DNA from: Vezdaea acicularis | Taxonomy: Eukaryota | DNA: 64,000 bases | Reading direction: 5' to 3' | NCBI GenBank assembly: GCA_026025075.1 | Contig: JAPEUI010000028.1 | Location: 62,001-126,000, forward strand | Shown: positions 1,693-60,201 of the stretch, one piece after another | Layout: each line of letters starts with the position of its first letter | Position numbering within the stretch: position 1 is the first letter of the stretch | Program-made: the position numbers and the translations under genes | Notes under the pieces: generated by a model | Databases searched by the model: none | What the model saw: the letters and a program-made list of their open reading frames with translations, nothing else | Told to the model about the DNA's origin: nothing

Positions 1693-4600
1693 CTACATGT
1701 ACCTGCATCACAACATGAGTCAGCACAAGCGACACGACAACATAAAATTCGGGGATTAAGTATGGGCTTCTCTTACAAGGAAGCTACAGCAGTAACATCT
1801 CGCTTGATCATTTCCTGACACTCTTGCATTTTGGTGAAGAGCGTCGGGTCACCAACGATTCGCGCTGCGTTCTTGACTTCACGGCACGTCTCATCTAATC
1901 GGGTAATGACGCGAACGATAGTACCTTCTAGGACGTCTGTCAAGTCCGTAATGCGATTGAAGGACATGCCCCTTGCCCACTCATATACGACTTCAACAAG
2001 CCCAAAGCGGGGTCTGCTGACAAAGTCGTTAGAATCCTCACTGGAAAGGATGACTTGATATTGTGTCTGAAATGCATTGACTTTTTCGGAAATTTCGATA
2101 ATAATATCTCTCCCCCGTTCCAAGCTTGGAGTAAGCGTTGGTATGTTATCGGTCTTTTCCTGAAAGACGAAAGCAGAAAGTAAGGCCACTATCTCTTCCG
2201 GGTCGAATTCAGCGAAAATATTCTCCAGAATGAGTTCTGTCAAAATTAGTTCATCCGCAGAATGGATCTTCAATGGGAGTTCGTAAGCAGGGTCTCAAAG
2301 CATTTCCTATCAAGATGCAGCCTACCTCACATGCGACCTTGCCCTTCAACTCGATTCTCGAATTCTCATCGATAAAGTGTAGCTCTTTCAAAACAGCTAT
2401 TCGCTGCTCATAGTCAGGTAGAAGCAGCAGGTTTTGGTCTGACATAAGCTGTTTAAGCTGCGAAATGTTTTCCTGAATGAGCCACTCGTTGTGACGTGTC
2501 GCAAACTAACCCTATTAGCTGTGGCAATAAAACCTAGAGGTCAAACCTCATACATGTTTAGGAAATTCCGGACATGATAAACATGTTGCATCCTGGGCAA
2601 CGGCAACAGCCTTCTGTCGCTTTTCCAAGGTTTCTCGTAGCTGTAGTTCTTTGACACGATTCCAATCTAATTCGTCCCATTCGGGAGCTTCCCAGCGACG
2701 TATGAACTTCGAAGCCTCCTCTTGTAGTTCCCTTACTGCATCTACATCATTTCTTAGCATAGATAGCATGTTAATGGTGGAAGTTTCAATACCTTTATCC
2801 TTACGGAATTGGGAAAGGGACATCTGAACCTTTGAGATAGTGTTTGTGAAACATTCAACCTCACTTAAAGGCACTTCGACAACTCTTAGTCTCGCTTCAA
2901 GAGTCTCGGATAATTCGGTAAAGTATGATCTGAATGCAGGAAGATAAGGAAGCATATCCCCTTTCGATCCATTAGTACAATGTCTAATGGAGAGTTGTAG
3001 AATTACCTGTCTGGCGCTTTTCTACAGTAGTGGCCAGCTCTAAGATATGAGCAGAGCTATTAGCGCCTTTCGATGTTGGCTCTCGAACCAGCAAGCCTGC
3101 CGCGCGGGTACCGTTCTACCTCTGTCAGTTATTGTTCTAGATAAGAATATCCTAAGTCCGCCTACATCAACGAACACTACTAGACGTTTTGGGCAGCACA
3201 TCCTTCTTCCAACTGGAGACGCCATTAGTCCAATGTGTAGTTCTGTTGTCAGTCTAGAGTAATCAATTGAAGCCTGGTGAACAGAATCTAGGTCCGCATC
3301 GCATATATTACAGGTAGCCCGTTTGATCCTTGCGAGGTCTGCTTCCGATGACTTAATTTGCTTCTCCTGCTCCGGGAGCAGAGCTTGTGTTGCATTCTCG
3401 CTGAAGCTCCGCTTAATCATTTCCTCAATCTTCAAGGCCTCGACTCTGAGAAGATTAAGGATCATGTTGTAGGAAAGACGGAACTGCGAGCGAAGCTTCG
3501 TTGGCTCTCCCAGAATCATTTGTTTTAACGTAGAAACGGAAGGAGCTTCATCTCGATTTGAATGAATAATCACCGATCCCACTGGGTCAAGGCCTCGCCG
3601 TCCAGCTCTACCTGCCATTTGAGTGTATTCACCAGGGAGTAGGTCTCTAAACTCATGTCCATCATGCTTGCGATATCCTGAGAATACGACCGTTCGCGTA
3701 GGTAAATTCAACCCCATTGCAAATGTTTCAGTTGCAAAGAGAACCTTGACCAACGTTTTTGCGAAGAGGATCTCGACGCATTCCTTCACAATTGGTAATA
3801 GGCCCCCATGGTGAACTGCGATTCCACGGCTTAGGAGTTCCCTCAAACGTCGAATCTGTGGCAGCTGCCTGTCTTCTTGCTTCAGTCGAGCGAGCGATTT
3901 TTCAAGGATCATATGAATTGCACTCTTCTCCGCCGCTGTACAGTAGTCCAAGTTTGAAAGTGAGTCTGCATTTAATTCGCAACGCTTCTTGGAGAAAACG
4001 AATATACACGCAGGAAGTAAATCTTCCTTTCTGAGGTGCTGAACAAGATGAACCCAAGTGTTACGATCTTGGGCAGCAGATGTGTACATACCTCCACGTC
4101 CTGCTCGGGCTATATTTCCTCCACCTGGCCCGCGATTGGAGTGGCCTCGTGTCCCACGGGTAGAATCGCCACGTCGGGTCTGGCCACGGCTACCAGTTCG
4201 TTGGTTATTTCCACGATTTCCGCCTCTCTGATTTGCCCCCTTAGATTGATTAGCAGCTTGCTCATGAGCTAGTGGCGTTTTTATCTTGTCGCGGCCAGAG
4301 ATGATGTCACTAGCCTCTTTCCAGCCGTTATCAAGGAATTTCTTATCCGCATCTACAATCTTATACATCCCCTTTCCAGCCCATAAATAATGCTCCAGAG
4401 GGACTGGCCTCTTTGGAGTTGAAATGACATATATATCCTTCTTTTTTGTTCGGCCAACCCAAGAAGCGAACTCATAAGTATTAGGGACGGTAGCTGAAAG
4501 TAAAATTAACGTAACATGCTCAGGTAGCATGATGATAACCTCTTCCCAGACTACACCACGTTCAAGGTCATTGACGTAATGGACTTCATCGAAAATGACA

Positions 4601-15836: not shown

Positions 15837-18433
15837 ATGAGTGGTTCCGGGGGGGGAGGGGACGCAAAGCTCTTTGCGAGGGTACGTTTTGTGCTTTCTT
15901 GAGTTACTCAAAGCTGTATACATATGATTCCTTCTTTCACAAGCTCAACGGCATAAAGATGAGCTTTATATCCCATCCACATTTGTGCGCCTAGCAGCGT
16001 ATACTGCGATTGCCCTTTAGAGGCCTCATTGAACAATGATTTATATCTACCTAAGCCACAAATCTTCCCTTTACCATTATCGTTTCCCTTCTGTTATCCA
16101 AAAAGCACGGCTTACCCTATCATCAAAATTTGCAGGGTAAAGTAGCGGAGCTACGTGCGGACCTCCAACAATATACACGAAAAGATCAAAAGAACCACAG
16201 CGGCAAGAAGAACACCTTGAAAAAGATAGTGGCAAACATGACAATGAGCAATAGTGACATGATTGGGCTATTTCCAGACATCATCCAGTTAATGGAAATA
16301 CCAAATTTAGAGATCAAGAAGATGTACACATCTTATATCCAGGTGCTGCTTGTCAAGGTATTGATCTTATATAGGTGTTTTCTCTTTCTTGTACATTACG
16401 GCCGTGCTAAGCAAGATGCCGCCATCAAAACTCTTCCGATTCTCATTGCGGTATGATCTCACCGTAGATTACAAGACGATTGGATATCTAACCTTGCCAC
16501 AGGACATGAAAGATACGAATCCTTTGGTTCGAGCTTTAGCTTTGCGAACGATTTCTTACATCAGTGTCCCACAATTTGTGGATGCCACATTACCGCCATT
16601 GAGGGGATTGCTGAAGGATCCCGATCCATATGTTAGGAAGACTGCCGCTTTTTGTGTCGCGAAGCTATACGACCATGATAGAGTGCTCGTAGAGCAGTCA
16701 GACCTGATCGCGGGACTAAACGCCATGCTGCGGGATGATAATCCAACGGTTGTCGCTAGCTCCTTAGCGGCGTTGATGGATATCTGGGAGAGGAGCGAAA
16801 CCATCAAGCTCACGATTGACTATGCGAATGCCTCAAAGATCGTCCAGATTCTGCCTGATTGCTCTGAGTAGGTTGCTGTGAGAGGTCAACTTTGCAATCA
16901 GCGATTGACGTTTCATAGGTGGGGTCAAACTTATATCTTGGAAGCTTTGATCACATATGTTCCCCAAGATACCGCTGATGCTGCTCTTCTTGCTGAGCGC
17001 ATCTCGCCGCGACTCTCGCATTCTAATTCTGCCGTGGTTCTTACCTGCGTTCGCGTTATCCTCTACCTCATGAATTACATTGCCGATCAAAAAACTATTT
17101 CCTCCTTGTGTCGAAAACTTTCCCCTCCTTTGGTCACGCTCCTTGCTAAGGGCCCGGAAGTACAGTATCTAGCATTGAGAAACGCCTTACTAATTCTGCA
17201 ACGGAGGCCAGAAGTGTTGCGAAATGATATTAGGGTTTTTTTTTGCAAATACAACGATCCTATCTATGTAAAGGTAACCAAACTTGAGCTTATCTTTATG
17301 CTGGCAACGGAAAGCAACATTGAGGAGGTTTTGACAGAACTACGAGAGTAAGTGAGGATAGTCATGGCGTGAATGCTGTAGCTAATATGCGCAGGTACGC
17401 TACCGAGATTGACATACATTTTGTTCGGAAGTCAGTACGAGCTATTGGAAAGCTTGCTATCAAGATAGAACCTGCAGCGCGCCGCTGCATCAATACGCTA
17501 CTCGAGCTAGTTGCTACCAAAGTATCCTATATTGTGCAAGAAGCAACAGTCGTCATCCGCAACATATTTCGAAAATATCCAAACCAATATGAGTCTATAA
17601 TATCTACGCTCTGCGAGAACCTTGATTCGCTAGAAGATGCTGAAGCGAAGGCAGCTATGATCTGGGTGATCGGGCAGTATGCAGACCGCATTGACAATTG
17701 CGACGTTATTCTAGAAGACTTTCTCTATTCTTTCGCGGACGAGCCTGTGGAGGTCCAATTGGCACTCCTTACTGCGACGGTCAAACTCTTCATTCAAAGG
17801 CCCACCAAGGGTCAAGAGCTGGTTCCTAAAGTGCTCAAATGGGCAACAGAAGAAACAGATAATCCAGATCTTCGAGATCGAGGATATATGTACTGGCGAC
17901 TCCTTTCGTCTGATCCGGCGACTGCCAAAAAAATCATCATGGGTGAGAAGCCTCCTATTACGGCAGAATCAGAGAAATTAGACCCAACTACGCTTGAAGA
18001 GATGTGTCTCAACGTTGGCACACTGGCGACAGTGTACCTGAAGCCAGTCCAACAGGTCTTCCGCACGGCGCGTCCAAGGCGGCTGACTGATAGCCCCGCA
18101 CTCCAAAAGCATCTTTTACCGACAGCTCAAGCATATGATGCTCAGAAGACTCTGCCAGGCTTGGGATTTGAAGGTCAATTACCCGTGCAAGGGCGGCCGT
18201 ACCCAAATGGACAAGGTGACATGTCCGCGGCTACCGATGCTGCAGACTCGTATTTCGCTGGTTTAGGAAGCCAGCAGATGGCCGCGATGGAACTACGAGA
18301 TCCTGGTTTTCTTGGGAGCCCACCTGCAGGAAGCGTCGGTGACAGGCAGTTTGTCGTCAATCAGAGTCAACCACAGCAAGCTTGGGAGCCCCAGGCGGGT
18401 GGTGGAACCAACGGTGACCTACTATTACTCTGA
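15837..18433 (+). CDS. APL1: AP-2 adaptor complex beta subunit (beta-adaptin)
   Basis: Exon 1 MSGSGGGGDAKLFAR (15837-15881), a 254-nt intron, then GKVAELR…KKIVANMTM, NPLVRALALRT and DPYVRKTAA. The N-terminus is of the fungal AP-2 beta type rather than AP-1 beta. Confidence 0.88.
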
Positions 18434-44003: not shown

Positions 44004-45962
44004 ATGTCTTTTCAGCGCATCGATCTCACAACTGCATTACGTCCCTCACTTTTGCACGGCGAGACCCTTCTATTCGTCCAAGATTGTGTAGGGCTCTACC
44101 AAGGGTACCATAAAGATCTTACCGTTGTTTAGAATTAGAGTAGGCTCCGAGGCTGATTCGATCTAAAACAAATAGGAAATACAAGATATCCAAATGTCAG
44201 AACGGTCATGCCTACCTCACATCTCATCGCGCCTGTTACGTAGATAACGAACAACCTAGAGAGTATTCGGTAGCAATTGAATTGAAGGATGTTGAGCGCT
44301 ATGAGTTCTACGTGCGCATAGACCTTTTCGTGCTAGATGGCAAGCAGCTAATACTGTGTCTAGGCAGGTTTCCTAAAGTCTTCTCCTAAAGTCACATTCT
44401 ATCCCAAACCGCCAAAACGTCTTAACGCTCCTATTCGGCCAAGCTCTTTGATCTCACCCTCACGTAGTTCTAATGCATCGCCATTTCAGCAAACCCCAAG
44501 TCCTGTACCTTCTCTCGCGAGTAATGCTACTTGGATATGCCCCATATGTTCACTATCAAATCCGGTTCCATCGAATTTCGACCCAGGGACAGCAACTGCC
44601 GATACACCAATGCCCTCCTGCCTTACATGCGGGATGCAACCTCCCTTCTCACATATGGTCAAGGCTGCAATAAGGAATGCAAGACATACGCAGCCGGTGG
44701 CTCTGACCCAAGTTCCCAGTCAATCTTCAATAGAGGGAGACGCTCAGGCTGGAACAGTCATCCCAATTGTTCGTGCTCCAGACTCGTCATACCCTTGCCC
44801 TCGCTGTACCTTTCTCAACCACGCCTCTTTGCTAGCTTGTGAGATGTGTGGTGCACCCTTGACGGCTGTGGGTGCGGCTCGTGAGCTACTGGGTACAGCC
44901 AATGGGTTCCGTTCGGATTCCCCTGGACCTTCACTCGATGAGGTAAATCTCGGGGCAGGGACTGGCGAGAGCGTAAAGATCTCTTTTCGTGGCGGCGGCG
45001 AGAAGACTTTTCATGAGCGCCTCGGAGGGGCTATGATCCAACGGAAGTGGTTGTTATATGGGGCACCTCCCATACCTAAGCCTCATCAATCTTTAACTTC
45101 TGAGAATGCTGATGATCTAGAGGGCTTTTTAGGATCAAGCAAAGGGTTCTCACGGACTCCGTCAGGTCGGGCGAAGAACTTCGGTGTTGCTGGACTGGAG
45201 AATCGAGGCTTGGAACTGCAGAAAAGTACCGAGGTTGTAATTGGCAACGCCTTTGAAGATCTTGAAGCATTGAAAACTTCAGCAAAGGAGATCATTCAGT
45301 TGGCAGAACGCTTTGCGGGTCACATCGGCAACACTTCCTTGGGAAACTCGGCCGAAATTGGGCTTCTTCTTTCTCAATCAGCTAACGCCGTCGGCCTTGT
45401 TACAACCAAAGATATGCTTGGCTCCGGAAGCAACTCAGAATCTCTATACCTCTCCGAACTATCTCGTAATCTAGCCGAATTCCTTACGGATGATGTGCGA
45501 GATCTACTTCGTACCGAAGGTGGGATGATGAGCCTCGTAGACTTGTGGGCTGTATTCAATCGAGCCCGAGGTGGTGTGGAATTGGTCAATCCCTTGGATA
45601 TAGAAAAGGCTGTGATGCTGTGGGAGAAGCTCAAATTGCCCGTGCGCTTTAGAAAGTTCAAAAGCGGACTACGCGCAGTGCAGAGTAATACGTGGAGTGA
45701 TGACAAGATTGTTGCTACACTGCTCTCTTGGTTGCAAGACAGGCACGTTGAACACCCATCTGCGGAAGTAAGATGGGACTGGCGTCAATTTGGTCGAGGC
45801 GTAACCGCGCAGGAAGCAGCCGATCGATTCCATTGGAGTGTGGCAGTCGCAACAGAGGAGCTTGAAACGGCTGAGGAGAGAGGCTTGCTTTGCCGGGATG
45901 AGGGCATGGAAGGCGTACGATTTTGGGAGAACATGTTTCTTGAGTTCTCCAAGCGTGCATAG
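44004..45962 (+). CDS. VPS36: ESCRT-II subunit Vps36 (split GLUE domain, two NZF fingers, EAP30 winged helix)
   Basis: MSFQRIDLTTALRP…, WICPICS…C, CPRCTFLNH…CEMC, AFEDLEAL and NRARGGVELVNP. Confidence 0.93.
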
Positions 45963-46571
45963 GCAGATAATCCTTTATCTTGGATTGTCGTCATGGCGCA
46001 GGTGTGTTGTCGTGCATATTAGGTTAAGGTCGTCCATCGGCGCATTATCACTCTTATGATATCATGAGACAGCACGAGCAAAAGATGGCGTCTCCAAGGG
46101 GTTTCATGGGATAAGACGTATCAGGGGCATATCCATAGAATGAGGAGGCAGCCTCTAGATGTCATTAAAGTCAGGCTCAAGTTATGCTGCAATAATGATA
46201 AGACGGCAAAAGAAGAGCTAAATATCAAAGGAATCAGCCAGTCATGCTCTTCATTGCAAGACGGATAGTCTTTGGTCTGGGTAAGAAAGGCTCTTTAGAA
46301 GCACTTTGTGAACCATGCATCATTGTGACGGTCAGACTATCAGTCGCTTGTTCCCTGATACGTGTGGCGTAGATAGTCCTGTAACCCATACAGAGCGGAA
46401 ATATTACACCAGATGAAGAAAGGGGGGTTTTCATTTCTAAAAAAGACCGAAACTCTGCGACGCTATGGGACGAAATTGCGAGGACTTGTTTTAGCTCAAA
46501 GGAAAGGTCTTCGCTTAGATTGAAGTCACGAAAAATAGTTCAATCGAGAGAGGCACTCACCAATAATGAAT

Positions 46572-46591
46572 AAAAACTGGAAAATGAAAAA
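46572..46591 (-). terminator. Pol III oligo-T terminator downstream of the tRNA
   Basis: T5 (46591-46587), T4 and T5 runs starting 10 nt after the discriminator base. Confidence 0.7.
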
Positions 46592-46600
46592 TCAACCACA

Positions 46601-46725
46601 CACCCTACTCGGGACTGATGCGAGAACTGTCAGCGCAAATTTAAGATTGTCGAGAATTATTTCATACCTCGAACCCGAAACCTTCAGATTAGGAGTCTGA
46701 CGCGCTACCATTGCGCCAGCAGAGC
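46601..46725 (-). tRNA. tRNA-Arg(CCU) split by an intron in the T-loop (exons 46725-46668 and 46614-46601)
   Basis: Spliced 72 nt: GCTCTGC TG GCGC AATGGTA GCGC G TCAGA CTCCTAA TCTGA AGGTT TCGGG TTCGAG|T CCCGA GTAGGGT G. All four stems pair; anticodon CCT. Confidence 0.93.
46615..46667 (-). other. 53-nt U2-type spliceosomal intron inside the tRNA, between positions 59 and 60
   Basis: GTATGAAATAATTCTCGACAATCTTAAATTTGCGCTGACAGTTCTCGCATCAG: 5'SS GTATGA, branch GCTGAC (46634-46629), 3'SS CAG. Confidence 0.85.
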
Positions 46726-47010
46726 AGAATTTTCTGTAATTTCTGTTATTAATTTTTATCAACGTATCATGCTAAATATACTACAATCAGTCGAGCTAAA
46801 GTCTCAAAGTGAAACGTTTCGTGAGGTTATTGCGCTGCAGGAACAAGAAATGCAAATACATTTGCGTGTTACTATTTGCTTCGCAAGTGTGGAAAGCTCT
46901 CTATGCAGGGATCGAGTGCTTTTTCTCTGGTGCTGGTGTTATACTTGGCCTCAGCAAGGCGGTCAAGGCCTGATAGTGACCTGATATAGGAAGGCCTCAA
47001 AGCCTGGACG

Positions 47011-49133
47011 ATGGAAGACTTTTCTCTGTCTATTCGGGTGTGGCCAGATGTCAGGCCTAGCGGTGATGAGCTGCCACTTCTAATCTCAAGAATCAATGAG
47101 CAACGCGGACCGTTCAAGAACGTAACAGAGGGAAGCCTTAAGGCAGAGATTCGCTCTTTCGAGCCAGGCGATACTCCAATCACAAAACACGGAAGCGAGA
47201 AAGAAGATAGTAAGACGGGGCAAGATGATATAGCGGCTAAAAAGGAAGAGCTGCTGAAAGCTCGAGCTGAAATAGGCAAGCATGTTGCGTGAGTCGACAG
47301 GGTAACCTGTCTCTGAAGATACATTTGCTAACAAAATTTAGACAAGCTTTTCAGGATGTACACCTGGCTCTCGACTTTATCTCTCTCCTCCTCACCAAAG
47401 TCTCTCCTGTACAAGCAAACATCTCATTGAGTGACCATGTAAAACAGCACGTTCCAAGCGGTGTACTTGGTGCCGATAAGATCTCGGCACCCTATTTCTC
47501 GCCTTCTGATACAGCGAGCAATCTCAATCAGATCACGAGCGGATGGAAGCTCCAAGGGCTAAATTCTGCAGCAGATGCGCTACTCCAGTCTGCTAGCAGG
47601 CTCGAGAATGAGATCAAAAAGGAAGCCAGATACTGGGACCAGATACTACAAGTCAGCGAAGAAAAGCTAACAATCTCAAAACTGCCTAGAGAGCGACATT
47701 CTCTATGTGTTAGGTATGGGTTTTCTGAATCAACACAGGAATTCAAAGACCGTGGCACCGCCGCCCTAAGACTCGAAGAGGATGGTAACGTGCTCTTTGA
47801 CCAAGGCATAACTGCGTCGAGCCCACGTGCAGTTCGAATACGGATTGAAGAGAATGGGCAAGAGATTGGTGCTTCAGAGATACCTCTGGTTTTGAGAGAT
47901 AATACCTTAACGTCATCTCTGATATATCAAGCAAGCAACTCACTGTTCGAAGAAGAGCTGTTTTACGAGCTCGTTCGGGAGGCTCGTGGCTTGACTAGCC
48001 AGGGGATACGCATCAGAGATGGAGCTGTAGTCCTCTCGATTCCTCCAAAATTGGTTGTGATCGATCTCGTCGACCTTCCGCTTAAGCCCTCTACCTCTCG
48101 ATCTGGCTGCTCTGAATTGCCGCTGTCATCACTTGCAGAGGCCATTATAATCGCGTTACGGATCCTTCTCGCTCATGCACATACTCTAAACCTTCAAGCC
48201 CGCTCGGTTCCGCCGCCGCCTCTGAGCGAACGTAAAATCACGCGGCCGTCCTATGCACTTTTACGTCCAGTCCTCACCTACTTGAACTACTTCAGAGCCA
48301 GACTTAGCCTGAAAAGGTTCCTATCGGCGCTACTATCGCCATTTGCAGCCGCAGGCCTCGAGACTTCTCTTGACGCGTCCATTGCTTCTACGGATTTATC
48401 TTCTCATAACACGAAGGATAGATTTCTAGCGTATGCTGAAGATGATTGCATAGCACCTACTGACGTCGTTCAATCTTTCCTTGAGCCGTTGACACTCGAA
48501 GTCCTGGTATCCCTTCCCCCAAACCTTAAGGTCCGTATCAAAGCGCAGACGCAGTATTACCCACATGCGCTCGGAACATCGTATTCAGTCTCCATTTCAT
48601 CATTTCATTCCTCACGTAATTCGTCACCGTCGGCCCCTGGAACGCTTGCTCAACTCTCACAAGAGACACCTAGCTTCTCAACACTAGAAGATCTTTCTGC
48701 TTTTATGTGCCACCTTGCTGGACTCGCTCTCACAGAGGTCATCCTAAATTACTCGGCTTCTCGCCAAGCCGTGAATGGGTTGCAGGGTTCTTGGGATACG
48801 GACGAAAGTGCTCCCGGAGTCGAGGGATGGCGGGCTCTAGTAGGAGGTGGACCGATAGGCGAGCTAGAAAAGAGGTATAAGAGAAAGGGAAAGTGGAAGA
48901 AGTTGGGTGTGAAGGTGGATGTGAACAAAGCTGGAAAGGGTGCGATACGAGTATCTTGGGGTTGGCTTGCAAGTGAAAATACGGATGGAAAATCTAGACA
49001 GGTCGGGGAAGTTGAGTGGATTGGCAATGCTGGAGGAGCAGATTCAGAGAAAAGAACCTTTAAGGAAGTCATTCAGGAAGCAGGAAGATTTGAGCTTGGG
49101 TCAATAGCAGAACGAGCAGCAACAAGTATTTGA
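47011..49133 (+). CDS. SRB4: Mediator subunit 17 (Srb4), 2 exons
   Basis: LISRINEQRGPFKNVTEGSL, ALDFISLLL, GWKLQGLNSAADALL…EARYW, VRYGFSES and NSLFEEELFYELVREAR. Confidence 0.9.
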
Positions 49134-51550: not shown

Positions 51551-54500
51551 TTACAAGAATGCACACCACCCAACATACATGGCAGCAAGGTTCTTAAGGG
51601 AAGTGGCCTGCTGAATAAGCTCCTGAACATGACCCTCAATAGACAAAGGGACAGCTTCGCCACGTAGTAATCCGCTCACTTTTCCCCTGACTACATCGAG
51701 CACCTCTTGCGGAGTATTTGCATCTGACGAGGTGACCTTTCTTTTCCTCCCGATGAAATCTGTCGTTGGATCGTACACGAAAGTCTCCAAGATAGTCATA
51801 AGTGTGTCTTCGTTTTGTCGTAATATGCCAAGCGTAAGCTCGCATGACTTGCGGAATGGACCTGCACACACGTCAGAAATCGAGCGCAGTAGCTTTGATC
51901 GGATGAGTTCAGGCGTACCCTCTGTACCATACACTCCGAACGCATCAACCATATTATGAGTGAGCCGAAATGGGACCTTTTCTGGTTTATCGAAGGTCAA
52001 GCCCTGATTGTCCTTAGTGACGTCGTGAGAAGAATACTTTCTCTACTTACCTTATCAAAGAGGCAATTGAAGTCCACATGGAAGGTGCCACCGTTACCTT
52101 CCTCGAAGAGAATATTCTCTCCGTGTCGATCTCCAAGCCTGTGTACTGTTAGCTTGACATAGCATAGCTATGGTCAGTTGAAGTTTACCCAAGGACCATC
52201 CCCACCATCGACATAACAGCGCAGGAACGGGTATATCTTAGACGAGCGTTGAACCAGGCGCTCGGATCTGGAAACATCTCCACGAACCATTCGTGGAAAA
52301 CTGGAGGAAAGCTGTCGTCCTTCAGCATACATATATCTAGTAACTTTAGTCACGACCTACTTATTCAAGACTTTTGTTTCGTATTGCGGGAGCTTTGACT
52401 CGTCGTGGAAAATCTCATCAAGTGTCACTCGAATATCAGAGAACTATCTGAGTCAGCTCAAACTTGATCGGTGGAATTCTAGCTGCCCTACATTTGGATA
52501 GACCCCTTTAGAACGGTACAACTTCAAGAGGATCTCTCGTAAGGCCTTGAGATTATCCACCCACTCGATGACACCGCATAGTTCATTTAGCGGGGTGACA
52601 GCATATGTCTTTATATCTGCTCTAAGGTTAGCGCTTGTTGCTCAAGCTCGTAGTCATAAGCTCAATATATATATGAGAACCGACATAAACGACGCTGGCT
52701 TGTTTCTATATCTCGCTTCAGCGATCTGTTGATCATTGCATTAAATTCCATAAGCCTTTGATCTTTTCGCAAGTCATCTTTAGGTTTGCATAATAAGCCA
52801 TAGACCTTGCCGTCAGAACCTCTCACAGATATCTTTTTGGGTCGTATAAGCGAGTTCAGGACGAGAACATCGTCAAGGAAACCTACATCTATGAGCAAGG
52901 GCAACAACAATCACAAGAATGCTCACTAGACACGGTTATAGTATCCCTTGAAAAAGCTTTGTGGCTCTTCATAGCATCTGTCACAGTGGGTAGACTCGCC
53001 GTTAGGCTCTGTTCTAAAGGCACAACCAAGGGGCATGGGGCAACTTTGTGATTGAAACCCAGATCTCGACCTAAGCTCACAGCATTAATTCTTGGAGGAA
53101 CTTCGCCATCGCAAACCTGTATCAGTTGCTCCGATAGCTTCTGACCATGAAGAATCAGCGTTTTCAGATCGAGAGCACTATCAGCCTTAGTGCGCTTCTT
53201 CGTTCCCTAGTCTTCCAATCAGCTTGACCGTATGTAGCGGGGCTAAGGGAGAGTGACTCTCAGCTGACTTAAACAGGTCCCCCCCCTCGCAGACCTTTCC
53301 GAGGTAGATGACTTAGCGACAGCTAATAGCGTCCACATCGCTTGCTGGGGATGTGTTGCTACGACCTTGACAATCATTTGCTGTAAGTAACCTAGAACCT
53401 CAGCATGAGGATGGCAGATCCGCGCTACAATCTGCGAGAACGCAGTGTAAAACTTAAAATCCTATCAGCTAGTTCTAGGAGAAGCATATATTTCATGACA
53501 AACCACAAATGCTGGTAGCCTTTCAATGTATTTTCTCAGTTGCGTATGTACATGCTCAAGGGTCTGCTGCCTGTAAATTGAAACTCGTTTCCTAAACTCT
53601 CTGGCCTAGTGTGTTAGTAAGATTAAAGCTATTCGAGAGTACTCGATATGTACTCACGGTCCTAATCCGCATTTTTGGTCGATTGGTTTGTCCACGTCAG
53701 AAGCCAGGTCAAGCCACAGGGTTAGAAGCTTTGGGAGGGTTTGAAATATGTATTTGGTACCATAGCCAAGCGACCTGAGATAATTTTGCACGACTAATTT
53801 AGCTGTTTCTCCGACGAGGCTGCCTGAAGTCAGTTTTGCGCTGTAGAAAGATGAGGTTGTACCATACAAGGATTGCGACTGTTTTTGAGGAGGCTGAGCT
53901 TTCTCCGATTCTAGGAGCTTATTGTAATGTTTCCCCAAGTAGTAGTGTCCTTTTTCCCACCTAACATGGGCATTTGCTGCTTTTTGATACCTGTTGATTA
54001 TGCTATGAGACTGGGAATGCCCTGCAGTATCAAGCCATTTTGCAAGCAGCAAATGAGCCTGCGGAATGACTATTAGTATTCACATAGCATTACTTGCGCG
54101 GATACCTTACCCTTGCAGTGAGTAGATTCTGTCGCTCAGACATCGCAATTGCTTCATTTCCCGCTAAGCTTCCCACGGGTTCAGCATCGTGAAGCCTAAA
54201 GGCGTTCGCAGCGATAGCGCCCTCCAAGCTTTGGATTGCTTTGCGATGATGGCCCTCTTGCCAAAGCAGTCGAGAATGCTCGATGGTAGCCGATTCCGCT
54301 CCAAGTCGGGACGCATGAAGAACTGCATTGAAGGACTGATGGGTGTATTTGGCCTTTCTTGCAAGCTTGGCGCTTGTCAACCAAACGGAACCAACGTCTA
54401 CGTTGGTGAATTCAAGCCTGGCGACATTAACATTGGCATAGGTAACGAGCTTATTGGAGGCCTAACCTTGAAAGTTGCATAGTAGCTTTTCTAAGTCCTA

Positions 54501-57500
54501 AGAGGTATTGCTTATCAGATAAGAAGGCCCCTAGGACATCCAACCGTCGATCCAGTATCTGTAGGAGGGTAGCTTTTCCCAATTGGTTTTGTTGGGTTAC
54601 CCCACTGAGGGCCTCGATCTCAGTCAAAGCATGTAGCTTTAGCATGGAATCATGGCAGGCTCGAAGAGAAGTAGTCGAAGCGGTCGATAAGGTCGCCGCT
54701 ACGTTCCCTCTGACCTCCTGAAGCACCGCCTCAAAGTCAGACCACCGCTTTAGATGCAATGCAAGTAGTGCTCGACCAATGTCAACATTGAAGCTGCCAT
54801 TGAGTTTACCCGAAGAACGACTCAGATACCTTTCTAGCGTGTCCCACTTGCCAGTGACCCAAGATGCTTCAATTGCGAAGGGAAGCGCATGAGGGGCCGT
54901 ATCCTGCACTTGGAACATGCTCTCGACATGACTTAGAAGTACGTCTTGTGTTATCGTTAGCATGAGAGCACAGTCAGGCTGTAATGGAATCCCTCACCAT
55001 GCTGGCCTGACTCTTTAAGGCAGGTGAGGAGGTTTACTTGAACTTCTACGTCATTGGGTCGTTCCGCCAGTAGCAGTTCATACCAGCTCTGAGCTGCTGT
55101 CCATCGGCCGGTCTTCCTATGCTCGAGAATTTGCTGGTCAATGTTCAGGATATGCAAATGAGAGGATATACCCTCGATGCCATCCGGCTCATCAATCTGG
55201 GTATAAATATCTTGAAGTCTTTCGTAGAGGGGTTCTAATTGAGCCTCTCGCTCAAATCCAGCGTGTTTCTCTCGTACTTCTCGGATATATTGCTCCCAAT
55301 GGAACAGTGCTCTCTCATAAGACCTGCACTCTACTGCACGCTGGGCAATTATCCTGGCCGGTATGGCAGACAGAACTTGTTGGACTTGGCTAACTTGGAG
55401 CATCGCTGGCGCATCTTCAGCTACTGACTCCTCTCGCTTTCTCGCTTCTTGCTTTTTCTTTTCGAGAATCCATCGTGATAAGTAATCGAGCACTTGAAAT
55501 ACAGTCTATAGCTTGTTAGTCGCTCGGAAACTGGCCAGATAGAGCCGTAAGACCTCACCTCACTGCAGAGTCTGAGTGTCTTGCTCTCAGTATGAGATGC
55601 TTGATTTGTCTGACAGCTCACAACTGTTAAAATTTCACTAATTATTTCGTTCCTGTGCGGTTCATGACCGCCCAGTATGACGTTCAGAATTACGAAAGGG
55701 AGTAAGAAATTCGCAATCGTCGTTTCCTGGGGACGGGCAACTCGCGAAATGACAGGAAATAGCCTCTCTGCGTTCACTCCAACGCCTTTCTCAAATAAGT
55801 CAATGATGAATGCCTGCAACCATGTGGCGTGACTGATGGCAGACGAAAAAATAGGATACTTGCACCTTGGTGGGGGAGCTCTCCTGGTTACCGTATATCT
55901 AGAACTGAGGAATGGTGTCAATGTGCTCCTGATTGTCTCCGGCAGCGCTATCCACCGCCGGTAAGTTTTATTGGATTGTGTGTCGCAGCCGCTTAGAGTA
56001 CTCGCGTTATTCATGTCACAGAATTTGAGAAGTTCCTGCATGCCGAAGGCATAGAATCCCTGGGCTCTAACACTCGTCGCTGCGAGGAATGCCTTCACCA
56101 GGTAATCTTCAAGGAATATTAGAATGAACCCAACAGTCTCTTCGGCAGCCTCGAAGTTATTAAGCACAATGATGTCACGTCGCTCGTGCACTGCTTCAAT
56201 TCGGTTTGGGTCTAGGCAACCAATCAATCCAAGACAGCGAGCGCTCAGCTCTAGAATCTCTGATCGAGAAGAACTCAGCCTAACGCAAGCGTCAAGGATT
56301 GCACGGGTCAAGTCTGCCACTACCTGGTCTGGTTGCTCGCTCATTGCACAATCGTGCAAGAATGACTGGTGCTGGACCAGATAGAGGACAAGCTCGCTCA
56401 ATGCCTGACTGACTACCGTTGCGTTCTCATGCTGACATCGATCCTTGTATGCTAGGAATCGTTGTCTTGCATCTGCTTGCGCTCTGATCTTCATTAATTG
56501 GGCTTCAAATTTAGAGAGGAGCTGTATGCCAGAAAGTGATGGTAGGGACAGCACAGATTTCTCAATAGCTGCGCCATACTGCTTGAAAAGGTAGCTTGTC
56601 ATGTCGTGGGCCTTCTCTTGACTGTCTGGTTCAAGGACAGACCAGTATTGCACGATGATAGAGAATGTGCTATCAATCAAAGTTTCAACATCGTCTTCTG
56701 CTAGAGAAGTCATCATTGTCGCCCATGCAGCAAAAGCGGTATTGCGCAAGGCATCGACGTCTAACGCGGCTTGAAGACACGCGCAAACCTAATCTTATCA
56801 GTGATGTAGGCGTTCACTGACAAAGGTTTCATACCTGTGGTAAAGCATTGGCGATGTGTCTCTTCGCAACCTTCACCATTTCGCCGATTCCCCTAAGACA
56901 CCTAATCTTTTCAGAATTTGGTTGAGGAGGCTCTTGATCGCTGAATATCGCGTGGAAGTATGCAGTAATGCCAAGAACATGCACATCGAAGAATTGACCG
57001 AGTGAGTTATTCTTTTTTCCTTTTGGCTTTGCTTGTCCATGGTTTTGGGCGATGTTGGCCAGTAACTGCAAACTTTGATGTATCTATGCGCGATGTTAGC
57101 GGCGTTGATTCCCCAAACCGAGTAAGCGTAAGGTTCATACTTTGGCTTTTCTCCGATCGTCTGCTTCTCCAGCCATCTTGAGAAGCTCGAATGCGATTAA
57201 ACCTGGCGGGCCCTTCACAAAGTCTTCCAGGCTTGATAGATCCCTGAATCCAGGAGCAGTGTCGTGCAGGAGCTTCACAGTCGCGTCTTCAATGTCTGCA
57301 TGTTGCTGTGTCAATAACAATGCAAGAATAGCCGCAAAATTTTCTGGCTCGTAGCAGATACTCCAGACCGTACTTCCACATGCTTGTGCGATTTTCTGAA
57401 GCACATCTTGTCTCCTAGTCAGCACCAGATAAGGCAGAGTATAGGCTTGCGTCATGACTAGGAGCTCCGAGATCTCAATACCCATGAGATCACAGATTGT

Positions 57501-60134
57501 CTGAGCGGTTTGTGGACGGTTATGGAGATCTTTCACCACGGCGACTGCGATGGTCCGCCAGTAAGGCTCCAGGAGTTCTTTTGTGCTAACATTGAACGCC
57601 TTTGCGAGCTTCAACAGCTAACAACTGTCAATGGTCGCTCGCAATTTTCGATCTAACATACTCACTTCGTCATATGCAACACTTTTGATGAAAGGGTTCT
57701 CGTGACCAAGGTATTCGACCATTCGTAGGAGTGCGATATTGAGTTCGGCCCCTGTATTGACCCTGACATGCTTAGTACATATTGAGCTTCGGGGAGTGGA
57801 TAAAGGTACCGAGATAGCTGCCCCCAAGCCATTATACATGTCTCTTGAAAGCCTATTTTTTTCTGATCCGATGCGTGGCGAAGAAAATCAAGGGCAAAGA
57901 CTTTGTTGCGATGAAGCAATGTCCCTTCAAGGGCAGTTCGGAGGAAAGATGGAATAGTACGTCTATGTGTCATTAGACTGGGCACCTTTAGACTGGATCA
58001 CAACTTACCCCGCCGCAATGCGAAGCTCCCTTACCGTACTGCAAAGTGACTGCAAGCACCACTGAGCGATAGGAGAGTGTTCGAGTTCCAAATAAGTTGC
58101 GCGGTCCGTGTGATTTATGAGCCTGCGGGATGCTTCCATAGCCCAGACCCTAGGCCTTGTCGATGACTGAAATTCGAGGTCTCCTATGAGGTTTGAAAGT
58201 GTCGCAAACAGCTCTTCAGAATCGTCATCCAGCCATAAGGCAACTTGCTCTTGGCAAGGAGTTTCAGCATCGCATATGGAGCATTGAATATTCATAATGT
58301 TGCCATCATTGTCCCGATAGACCTGCAAAGATCTTGCACCTGTACATGTCACGTAACCGAACCACCTCAGGGCAAGGCACCGATCATCCTCAGAAAGCCT
58401 TGCGAAGCAGCCCCTAAGGAGATTCAGTAATCTAACATTTGCTTCACAAGTGGGAACTAACGTCGCTACGTCACGTAGACCTCCAAGATCCGTTGCAACT
58501 TGATCACCTAGCAATTTGAAAACCTTCGATGTTATCTCCTTGTATGGACTAGACACCTGTATATGAGGTTTCCCGGCTGATATCCGCCGTCTCTTGGTTG
58601 CTCGCTCGCCATTCGAACTATGATCCATACCGCTCACCAGCTGAAGATTGCGAAATCTGCTAGGTAAGACACTCTCGTTTGGCTGAGGGTCAAAGGCTAA
58701 TTGAGTTAATAACATCTTGGAGTGTGGTGCGAAAGCTTGTATAAAGGTAGTGCAGCAAGCCTGTTTTTGCTTAGCCAGTTTTACCATGCATTTTGGATTG
58801 TAATTTACCCGTAATCGTTGTTGTACGAATGCATCAAGATTAACAGCCTCGAAGGCTATCAGCAGTGCGGGAAGAAGAATATCTGAAGCGTTGTGCGCGG
58901 CTACTTCTGAAGCACTTGCAGCGTCCATAATAGTTAAAAGTGCTTCGGATATCTCTTCCTGCCAAGCTTGGTCGGTATCAGACAGAGATCGAACTTTATT
59001 GGCGACCTGTTTCATCAATAGCATCGACGCCCTGGAAGTTGAGACTGCGCGGACGTGGTTATTGAGTAGGTAAGAGGTTAAAATTCGAGTAATGCGAAGT
59101 AAGAGGAAGCTTAGATCGCCATTATCTAGAGGATTTACGCTAATAGTTTCCTCGTTCCGCAGAAAAAGCCATGCCTCTGAAATGTAATCAAGCGGCCACA
59201 TGATGTCATGTTGAGAAGGATGAGGAGAAAATCCGGCACTTTGCCCTGATACAAATGTAACAACAGAAAAGAGTAGATTTGTTGCCAGTAGCAAAGCCTC
59301 TAAGCTGGTTCTTACCAGTACTTGATTTCCCTCAGCTTGAAAACTGGTAGCATGGTTGTTGGGTAAAGTCTCAGTCAAGAGACCCTCAGATGGAACAAGC
59401 CGTATTGGCAGCTTTTCTGCCTGCAGCTCTGCTTCTCTTGAGCACTTTAGATGGAATAACAACTCTATCCGCCAGGATCAGTAAGTGAGAAAGACTCGGG
59501 TTCAAAAGGAAGCATGCGTACCCTGTACGCATGCTTTCATGTACTTGAGGACCGTTGAGGAATGTTCCCAAAGAACCTCTGAGGATCGTGACACTCGAAG
59601 AAATGTAGCAAACAGCATTGTCAACGAGCTTCTTAGGAAAGAGGCATTTTGATGGCTCACAAGCTTTAATATTCTTGGTAGTAGCCATATATAAAGCGGC
59701 GGTGGAGAACGACCCATACTATCTGGAGCACTTTTGGGCTGATAGAATAGAACGGCGGGAGTCTTTTCTACAATGAGACGTATCACGGAAACGCTATTTC
59801 CGGCTTGATGGAGCATGGGATCCAAGTCCGTGAAGGGATCGTCGCGTAACAAGACGTCTAGGCCGGCCATGGTCACGACGCGAACCAGCTTGTAATTCAC
59901 CTCAATGTCCTTTTCAATTGATCCATAATCGGTTGAATCTCCATCGTTGTTGTCGAGGATTTCGGTAAGCAGTTCCTCAAAACTTTTGCGGTCTTCTAAA
60001 TTTGGAGGACCATTTGTAATAGAGATATTGTTGACGAGCTGGGCTGCCGCAGAAGACGAAGGTGGATCTTCGTTAGATTTTGGTAGCGTTTTAAAGGTAT
60101 GCAGATGCTTGTGGATCCCCCGATCTGGCGCCAT
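51551..60134 (-). CDS. MEC1: ATR checkpoint kinase (Mec1/Rad3/UvsB), many exons
   Basis: UME/FAT region ([20 protein letters not shown]), PI3K-like kinase domain ([28 protein letters not shown]) and FATC end [12 protein letters not shown]. Confidence 0.95.
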
Positions 60135-60201
60135 CTTGTGAATCCAGAGATGATATCAGTGTTGCGCTTGAGAATTCCATCCGAGGGATTCTTATTAAGA
60201 C

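Follow-up and report, generated by a model that had tools for sequence, protein, structure and literature searches.

In the textbook division, a protein endonuclease excises tRNA introns, and spliceosomal introns are assigned to Pol II transcripts. Protein-spliced tRNA introns canonically sit at position 37/38 in eukaryotes; introns with a bulge-helix-bulge (BHB) motif at other positions occur in archaea, in red and green algae and in nucleomorphs. The known exceptions to the division are snRNA genes (U6, U1, U2 and U5) and the rDNA of some ascomycetes. None is reported for tRNA genes in the literature searched: a search confined largely to papers outside subscription returned no tRNA gene with an intron of the spliceosomal or mRNA type.

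In S. pombe, Pol III transcribes the only U6 gene; the intron of this gene, inside which the B block lies, is removed by the spliceosome (excerpts of PMC5855946). A sequence-only reading of the locus described here had named S. pombe U6 as a case of spliceosomal splicing of a Pol III transcript, and the same excerpts bear it out. They further describe U6 introns with canonical signals in many other fungi (Tani and Ohshima 1989 and Canzler et al. 2016, cited in PMC5855946) and spliceosomal introns in U1, U2 and U5 snRNA genes as well as in those for rRNA. For the origin of the U6 introns, the hypothesis given there is reverse splicing into the RNA, followed by reverse transcription and recombination.

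Spliceosomal introns that are absent from the mature rRNA occur within the rDNA of ascomycetes, mainly lichen-forming species (excerpts of Armaleo and Chiou 2021, PMC8527467, which cites Bhattacharya et al. 2000). S. cerevisiae spliced such an rDNA intron from its Pol I rRNA (PMC8527467). As far as the excerpts go, Pol II is thus not strictly required for the removal of a spliceosomal intron.

The locus reported here lies in a window of 64 kb, which is the whole stretch of DNA that was analysed; all positions refer to it. Here a fungus of the Pezizomycotina has a nuclear gene for tRNA-Arg(CCU) that is interrupted by an intron of the type found in the mRNA genes of the same host.

A tRNA-Arg(CCU) gene interrupted in the T-loop

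The interrupted gene occupies positions 46725..46601 on the minus strand. It is 125 nt long and 72 nt without the insert. Exon 1 (46725..46668, minus strand, 58 nt) covers tRNA positions 1-59 and contains the 5' strand of the acceptor stem, the D arm, the anticodon arm, a variable loop of 5 nt, the 5' strand of the T-stem and T54-G59. The anticodon CCT (46693..46691, minus strand) lies within exon 1, in a loop of 7 nt. An insert of 53 nt follows (46667..46615, minus strand), which splits the T-loop after nucleotide 59 (59/60). Exon 2 (46614..46601, minus strand, 14 nt) comprises T60, the 3' strand of the T-stem, the 3' strand of the acceptor stem and the discriminator G73. It completes all five T-stem pairs and all seven acceptor pairs.

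The spliced form folds into a full cloverleaf with four arms and no stem mismatch (ARAGORN after the removal of 53 nt). Three of the acceptor pairs are G-U. The spliced 72 nt were compared with the textbook list of invariant and tertiary tRNA bases. The conserved bases U8, A14, G18G19, U33, U36-A37-A38 and C56 are present, as are C13-G22-G46, R15-Y48 and T54-A58; no invariant base is lost. The G53-C61 pair and a closed T-loop of 7 nt exist only once the 53 nt have been taken out. Because the T-loop, G53-C61 and the acceptor stem exist in the spliced RNA alone, the tRNA can be functional only after splicing. A tRNA can be made from this locus only by removing exactly these 53 nt. The sequence was re-read on the minus strand, and all statements of the sequence-only reading about the split gene hold.

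The gene escapes standard finders. ARAGORN reported no tRNA gene in the intact window, with the intron option on or off, and called tRNA-Arg(cct) when the 53 nt at 46667..46615 were taken out. Rfam at gathering scores gave no match in the window. On the unspliced DNA, the tRNA family RF00005 matched 46718..46662 with 28.1 bits, or 0.9 bits below its threshold of 29 (gathering score). This local match was the only Rfam match in the 64 kb at E-value thresholds; exon 1 was aligned to model positions 8-63 with high posterior probability. There may thus be a class of tRNA genes that is hidden from ARAGORN and from Rfam at the gathering score, and fungal tRNA sets may be under-called. As both tools miss this gene, the absence of an isoacceptor in such genomes may be only apparent.

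We checked how often such an arrangement is found by chance. Of 127,972 14-mers of the window, three pair with exon 1 so as to complete its T-stem and its acceptor stem; exon 2 is among the three, and it directly adjoins the end of the insert. The same spliced product results from three border registers (57/58, 58/59 and 59/60), one of which gives GT...AG. The set of intron signals tested comprised GTRNG at the start, a CTRAY placed 7-25 nt before the end and a terminal YAG, with all registers allowed. At the borders defined by the tRNA, 18 of 400,000 53-mers of the window carried the full set, as did 11 of 400,000 shuffled versions of the insert (~3-5 per 100,000). In the reverse control, intron-like segments of 40-120 nt on both strands of the window (n=141) were removed one by one and the product was searched with ARAGORN. 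A tRNA was obtained from one of the 141 removals, namely at this locus. A chance origin of the split tRNA together with the intron signals is excluded.

Related DNA was sought in public collections (metagenome, viral and genome contigs), and no fungal relative was found there. The metagenome contigs gave no locus with the intron-specific pattern and none with the general tRNA-Arg(CCT) pattern, and the pattern search of the viral contigs gave no locus either. The general tRNA-Arg(CCT) pattern had one match in the genome contigs (L001, 401..430), in a contig of an Actinomycetota MAG. The host's ISN1 protein shares 74-76% identity with its counterparts in a Sarea resinae MAG, Xylona heveae and Coniosporium apollinis. 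A quick single-gene FastTree tree, with 39 of the 120 listed proteins, places the host protein beside an unnamed protein, with Xylona and Sarea as the next neighbours.

The insert as an intron of the host mRNA type

The insert starts with the 5' splice site GTATGA (46667..46662, minus strand), which fits GTRNGN, and ends with the 3' splice site CAG (46617..46615, minus strand), which fits YAG. The branch motif CTGAC (46633..46629, minus strand) is the only CTRAY motif of the insert. Its branch A at 46630 is 15 nt from the intron end. Past the branch point, the sole earlier AG is 2-3 nt away and too near for use. Hence, the first usable AG after the branch point puts the 3' end exactly at the tRNA junction. 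The insert has a G+C of 0.38, and its longest T-run is 3.

For comparison, introns of the host were inferred from pairs of long ORFs that are joined in frame by GT...AG. This gave 32 candidates; the shortest alternative per junction was retained, which left a set of 15 introns. The lengths of these 15 introns run from 46 to 57 nt, CTRAY is placed 9-14 nt before the 3' end, and the G+C spans 0.37-0.51; the length and G+C of the insert fall within these ranges. The commonest 5' hexamer among them is GTATGA (4 of 15), the one that also opens the insert. The distance from branch to end in the insert, 15 nt, is just beyond the range of 9-14 nt in the 15 comparison introns.

Two of the inferred host introns are backed by protein profiles. 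The 46-nt intron with GTATGA at 56834..56789 interrupts a continuous Pfam UME match, with profile positions 1-53 in the upstream exon and 54-102 in the downstream exon. For the 53-nt intron of Med17, the flanking exons match the Pfam profile at 35-112 and 104-450.

The introns of the window are in general very short and uniform; examples are 56834..56789, 16451..16502, 2553..2506 and 57140..57084. Several introns of 46-57 nt occur in a single large gene for an ATR/Mec1-like kinase (53657..60155, minus strand), which has Pfam UME and M-HEAT_ATR matches and served here to validate the way in which introns were inferred.

The insert is an intron of the host mRNA type (GT-AG, U2-type). This is established by the splice signals, which match those of the host introns, and it agrees with the sequence-only reading, which had taken the insert for a spliceosomal-type intron and not for a substrate of the tRNA endonuclease. 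One could instead suppose an endonuclease-type intron at the non-canonical position 59/60, which would be cut by the tRNA splicing endonuclease and ligase, the GT-AG look being a coincidence. The MFE fold of the pre-tRNA, which retains the acceptor, D and anticodon arms, would suit this. In stability, the pre-tRNA does not exceed shuffled sequences (z = -0.17; a fold at least as good was obtained for 79 of 200 shuffles).

A BHB motif was searched for in 48 arrangements (three registers times four by four cut offsets; 3-4-3 motif). A 4-bp central helix with flanking helices was found in none of the 48. The best arrangement has three of the four central pairs, two outer pairs and no inner pair. 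As the insert has no bulge-helix-bulge motif, the endonuclease route is unsupported. Moreover, this route would have to account for a full set of spliceosomal signals, which is expected in so few inserts (~3-5 of 100,000). We consider removal by the endonuclease very improbable.

A SINE or another tRNA-derived repeat was also considered for the locus and rejected, as exon 2 restores both stems and there is no second copy in the window. The insert itself has no further copy in the 64-kb window either; the best other match is 12 nt long, so that within these 64 kb nothing points to a repeated, introner-like mobile intron.

Promoter, terminator and fate of the gene

The A-box TGGCGCAATGG (46718..46708, minus strand; tRNA positions 8-19) is intact. 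The B-box is broken by the intron. It reads GGTTCGAGGTA (46675..46665, minus strand) instead of GGTTCGANTCC: positions 52-59 survive, whereas the first bases of the intron stand in place of 60-62. This amounts to three mismatches, at positions 60-62, so that seven of the ten specified positions match. No replacement B-box with two or fewer mismatches was found on the same strand between 46790 and 46450, a range that includes the intron and the downstream region. The sequence-only reading had described the B-box as broken with C61 displaced, the A-box as intact, the 5' flank as AT-rich and the gene as followed by T5, T4 and T5 runs; reading the sequence again confirmed each of these points.

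It had also stated that TFIIIC relies on the B-box. Excerpts of PMC11724288 agree, in that the 3' part of the B-box is read base-specifically. In the yeast TFIIIC-DNA structure described there, residues of tau138 are in contact with the template-strand G that corresponds to position 61, and older protection data cited in PMC11724288 have the template G61 and G62 as crucial to TFIIIC. As the template G opposite C61 and C62 is lost here, binding of TFIIIC should be weakened. Judged from these contacts, TFIIIC should bind the split B-box less well than a normal one.

The flanks are of the Pol III type. A TATA-like element, ATAAAAAT, lies at 46759..46752 (minus strand; -34..-27) in the AT-rich 5' flank and may serve as an upstream promoter element. 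On the other side, terminator-like T5, T4 and T5 runs (46591..46572, minus strand) start at 46591, 46584 and 46576, which is 9, 16 and 24 nt past the tRNA end. Of all window positions, 2.0% are followed by a T5 within 25 nt; for the same-strand positions of the spacer the share is 7.7%, a figure to which the tRNA-flanking runs themselves contribute.

The sequence-only reading had further counted the lack of a T-run longer than 3 in the intron among the kept Pol III signals. The observation is true (the longest run is 3). It is not evidence for Pol III compatibility: 12 of the 15 ordinary short introns of the window have no T4 or longer, and none of the 15 has a T5 or longer. As ordinary introns also lack long T-runs here, short T-runs as an adaptation to Pol III are rejected. 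Overall, the spliceosomal-type intron, the broken B-box and the U6 precedent of that reading stand; the T-run argument turned out to be uninformative, and a pseudogene as an alternative had been omitted.

The explanation that we prefer, at a probability of roughly 45%, is a genuine tRNA-Arg(CCU) gene with an acquired spliceosomal intron at 59/60, which would be transcribed by Pol III and depend on splicing. An ordinary short GT-AG intron would have been gained between T-loop positions 59 and 60. Its origin might have been reverse splicing into an abundant RNA, then reverse transcription and recombination, which for a tRNA is conjecture. Pol III would transcribe the gene from the intact A-box and the TATA-like upstream region despite the weakened B-box, and would terminate at the T-runs right downstream of the gene. 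The spliceosome would remove the 53 nt via intron definition, as in S. pombe U6 and in the rDNA introns of lichen fungi; the usual end processing and modification of the tRNA would follow.

This working-gene explanation is supported by the clean cloverleaf of the spliced form, by the host-like intron signals, by the Pol III-type flanks, by the ordinary use of AGG in the host and by the precedents of the U6 and rDNA introns. The points against it are the loss of B-box positions 60-62, the three G-U pairs of the acceptor stem, the branch distance of 15 nt and the pre-tRNA fold, which is no better than those of shuffles. Taken as a statement about the cell, it would mean a working nuclear tRNA that needs the spliceosome: a Pol III pre-tRNA with a split B-box would be spliced in the manner of an mRNA, and the supply of AGG-reading tRNA would be tied to the spliceosome. 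We put this forward tentatively, at a little short of an even chance.

The main rival is a young pseudogene. The gained spliceosomal intron, which could have arrived by reverse splicing and recombination or by another route of intron gain, would have silenced the gene, either since TFIIIC no longer binds or since the Pol III RNA stays unspliced, and this would be too recent for decay to be visible. The B-box has lost three of its ten specified positions, including those opposite the guanines read by TFIIIC, and the search for a substitute on the same strand (46790..46450) was negative, both of which suit a silenced gene. So do the three G-U pairs of the acceptor stem. Against a pseudogene, the 72 nt show no stem mismatch and no lost invariant base, and all three intron signals are intact. 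Importantly, intact exons and splice signals are expected equally if the insertion is recent and the gene then fell silent, and the Pol III flanks suit a recent inactivation just as well.

Spliceosomal introns of U6 and of rDNA get removed in other fungi, which speaks against silencing as a necessary outcome of an insertion of this kind. A dead gene is possible all the same, although we rate it appreciably below an even chance.

A further point for the pseudogene concerns the need for the tRNA. Another gene copy or, by the wobble rules, tRNA-Arg(UCU) could decode AGG. The genetics of yeast have tRNA-Arg(CCU) as dispensable; therefore, a loss of the gene could be tolerated here. AGG itself is in ordinary use in the host, with 81 of 7,475 codons in 15 long ORFs of the window, or 15% of the arginine codons. 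To call AGG decoding splicing-dependent, as the sequence-only reading had done, assumes that this is the sole tRNA-Arg(CCU) gene and that tRNA-Arg(UCU) is unable to read AGG.

The genomic surroundings raise the possibility of transcription by Pol II. The tRNA gene sits in a spacer of 1,048 bp between two plus-strand genes, Vps36, whose stop is at 45962, and Med17/SRB4, whose ATG is at 47011. It lies head-to-head with Med17, the two being divergent and 285 nt apart. The sequence-only reading had put the ATG of SRB4 about 290 bp away, and the measured distance of 285 nt between the Med17 (SRB4) ATG and the tRNA start is in line with this. An ORF of 150 aa (46872..47324, minus strand) runs antisense to the 5' end of Med17 towards the upstream region of the tRNA; it is probably spurious.

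In the Pol II route, Pol II would start in the promoter region that Med17 also uses and make a non-coding transcript that includes the tRNA; this transcript would be spliced co-transcriptionally, and RNase P and RNase Z would then cut out the tRNA. The head-to-head arrangement would allow this, spliceosomal introns are normally a feature of Pol II transcripts, and damage to the B-box would be irrelevant to Pol II. On the other hand, the kept A-box and the tight cluster of T-runs 9 nt past the tRNA are a Pol III layout, which may also be a relic. Given the terminator cluster, the Pol II route is less economical than transcription by Pol III. Moreover, tRNAs made by Pol II are very rare. We regard the Pol II route as unlikely.

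Comparison with known intron-bearing RNA genes

The weight of the finding hinges on the expression of the gene. If expressed, it would be the first tRNA that needs the spliceosome, within the literature searched. The exceptions to the division between the two intron types would then extend to the most abundant class of Pol III genes, and the locus would be a natural test of how much of the B-box TFIIIC really needs. Intron gain would also reach RNAs that never enter the spliceosomal active site, so that even tRNAs could be colonised. Even a dead gene would offer a rare view of a non-coding gene that has gained an intron.

The U6 genes of fungi resemble the locus in several respects. Both are small genes for a structured RNA with a type-2-like Pol III layout (A block, B block, TATA and T-run terminator), and in both the intron has a canonical 5' splice site, branch site and 3' splice site and interacts with the B block. 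The difference is in the host RNA: here it is a tRNA, and tRNA genes are not among the intron-bearing ncRNA genes named in the excerpts of PMC5855946. The B block is also affected in different ways. In S. pombe U6 the B block is part of the intron; the tRNA intron, by contrast, splits the B block and brings no replacement. Moreover, U6 lies in the spliceosomal active site, which explains reverse splicing into U6; a tRNA does not. Splicing is demonstrated for S. pombe U6, whereas for tRNA-Arg(CCU) it is predicted from the signals in the DNA.

The rDNA introns of ascomycetes are similar in that a short spliceosomal intron lies in a gene for a structural RNA that is not transcribed by Pol II, in Pezizomycotina. 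They differ in the kind of gene: rDNA is a multicopy Pol I gene, whereas the locus here is a single Pol III-type gene whose internal promoter is broken by the intron. The rDNA introns are found mainly in lichen-forming fungi, and the present host is placed near Xylona and Sarea in the single-gene tree.

With the protein-spliced tRNA introns, the locus has in common that a tRNA gene is interrupted and that removal of the insert is needed for function. Unlike them, the insert is not at 37/38 and has no BHB; it has GT-AG ends and a branch motif and is similar to the mRNA introns of its host.
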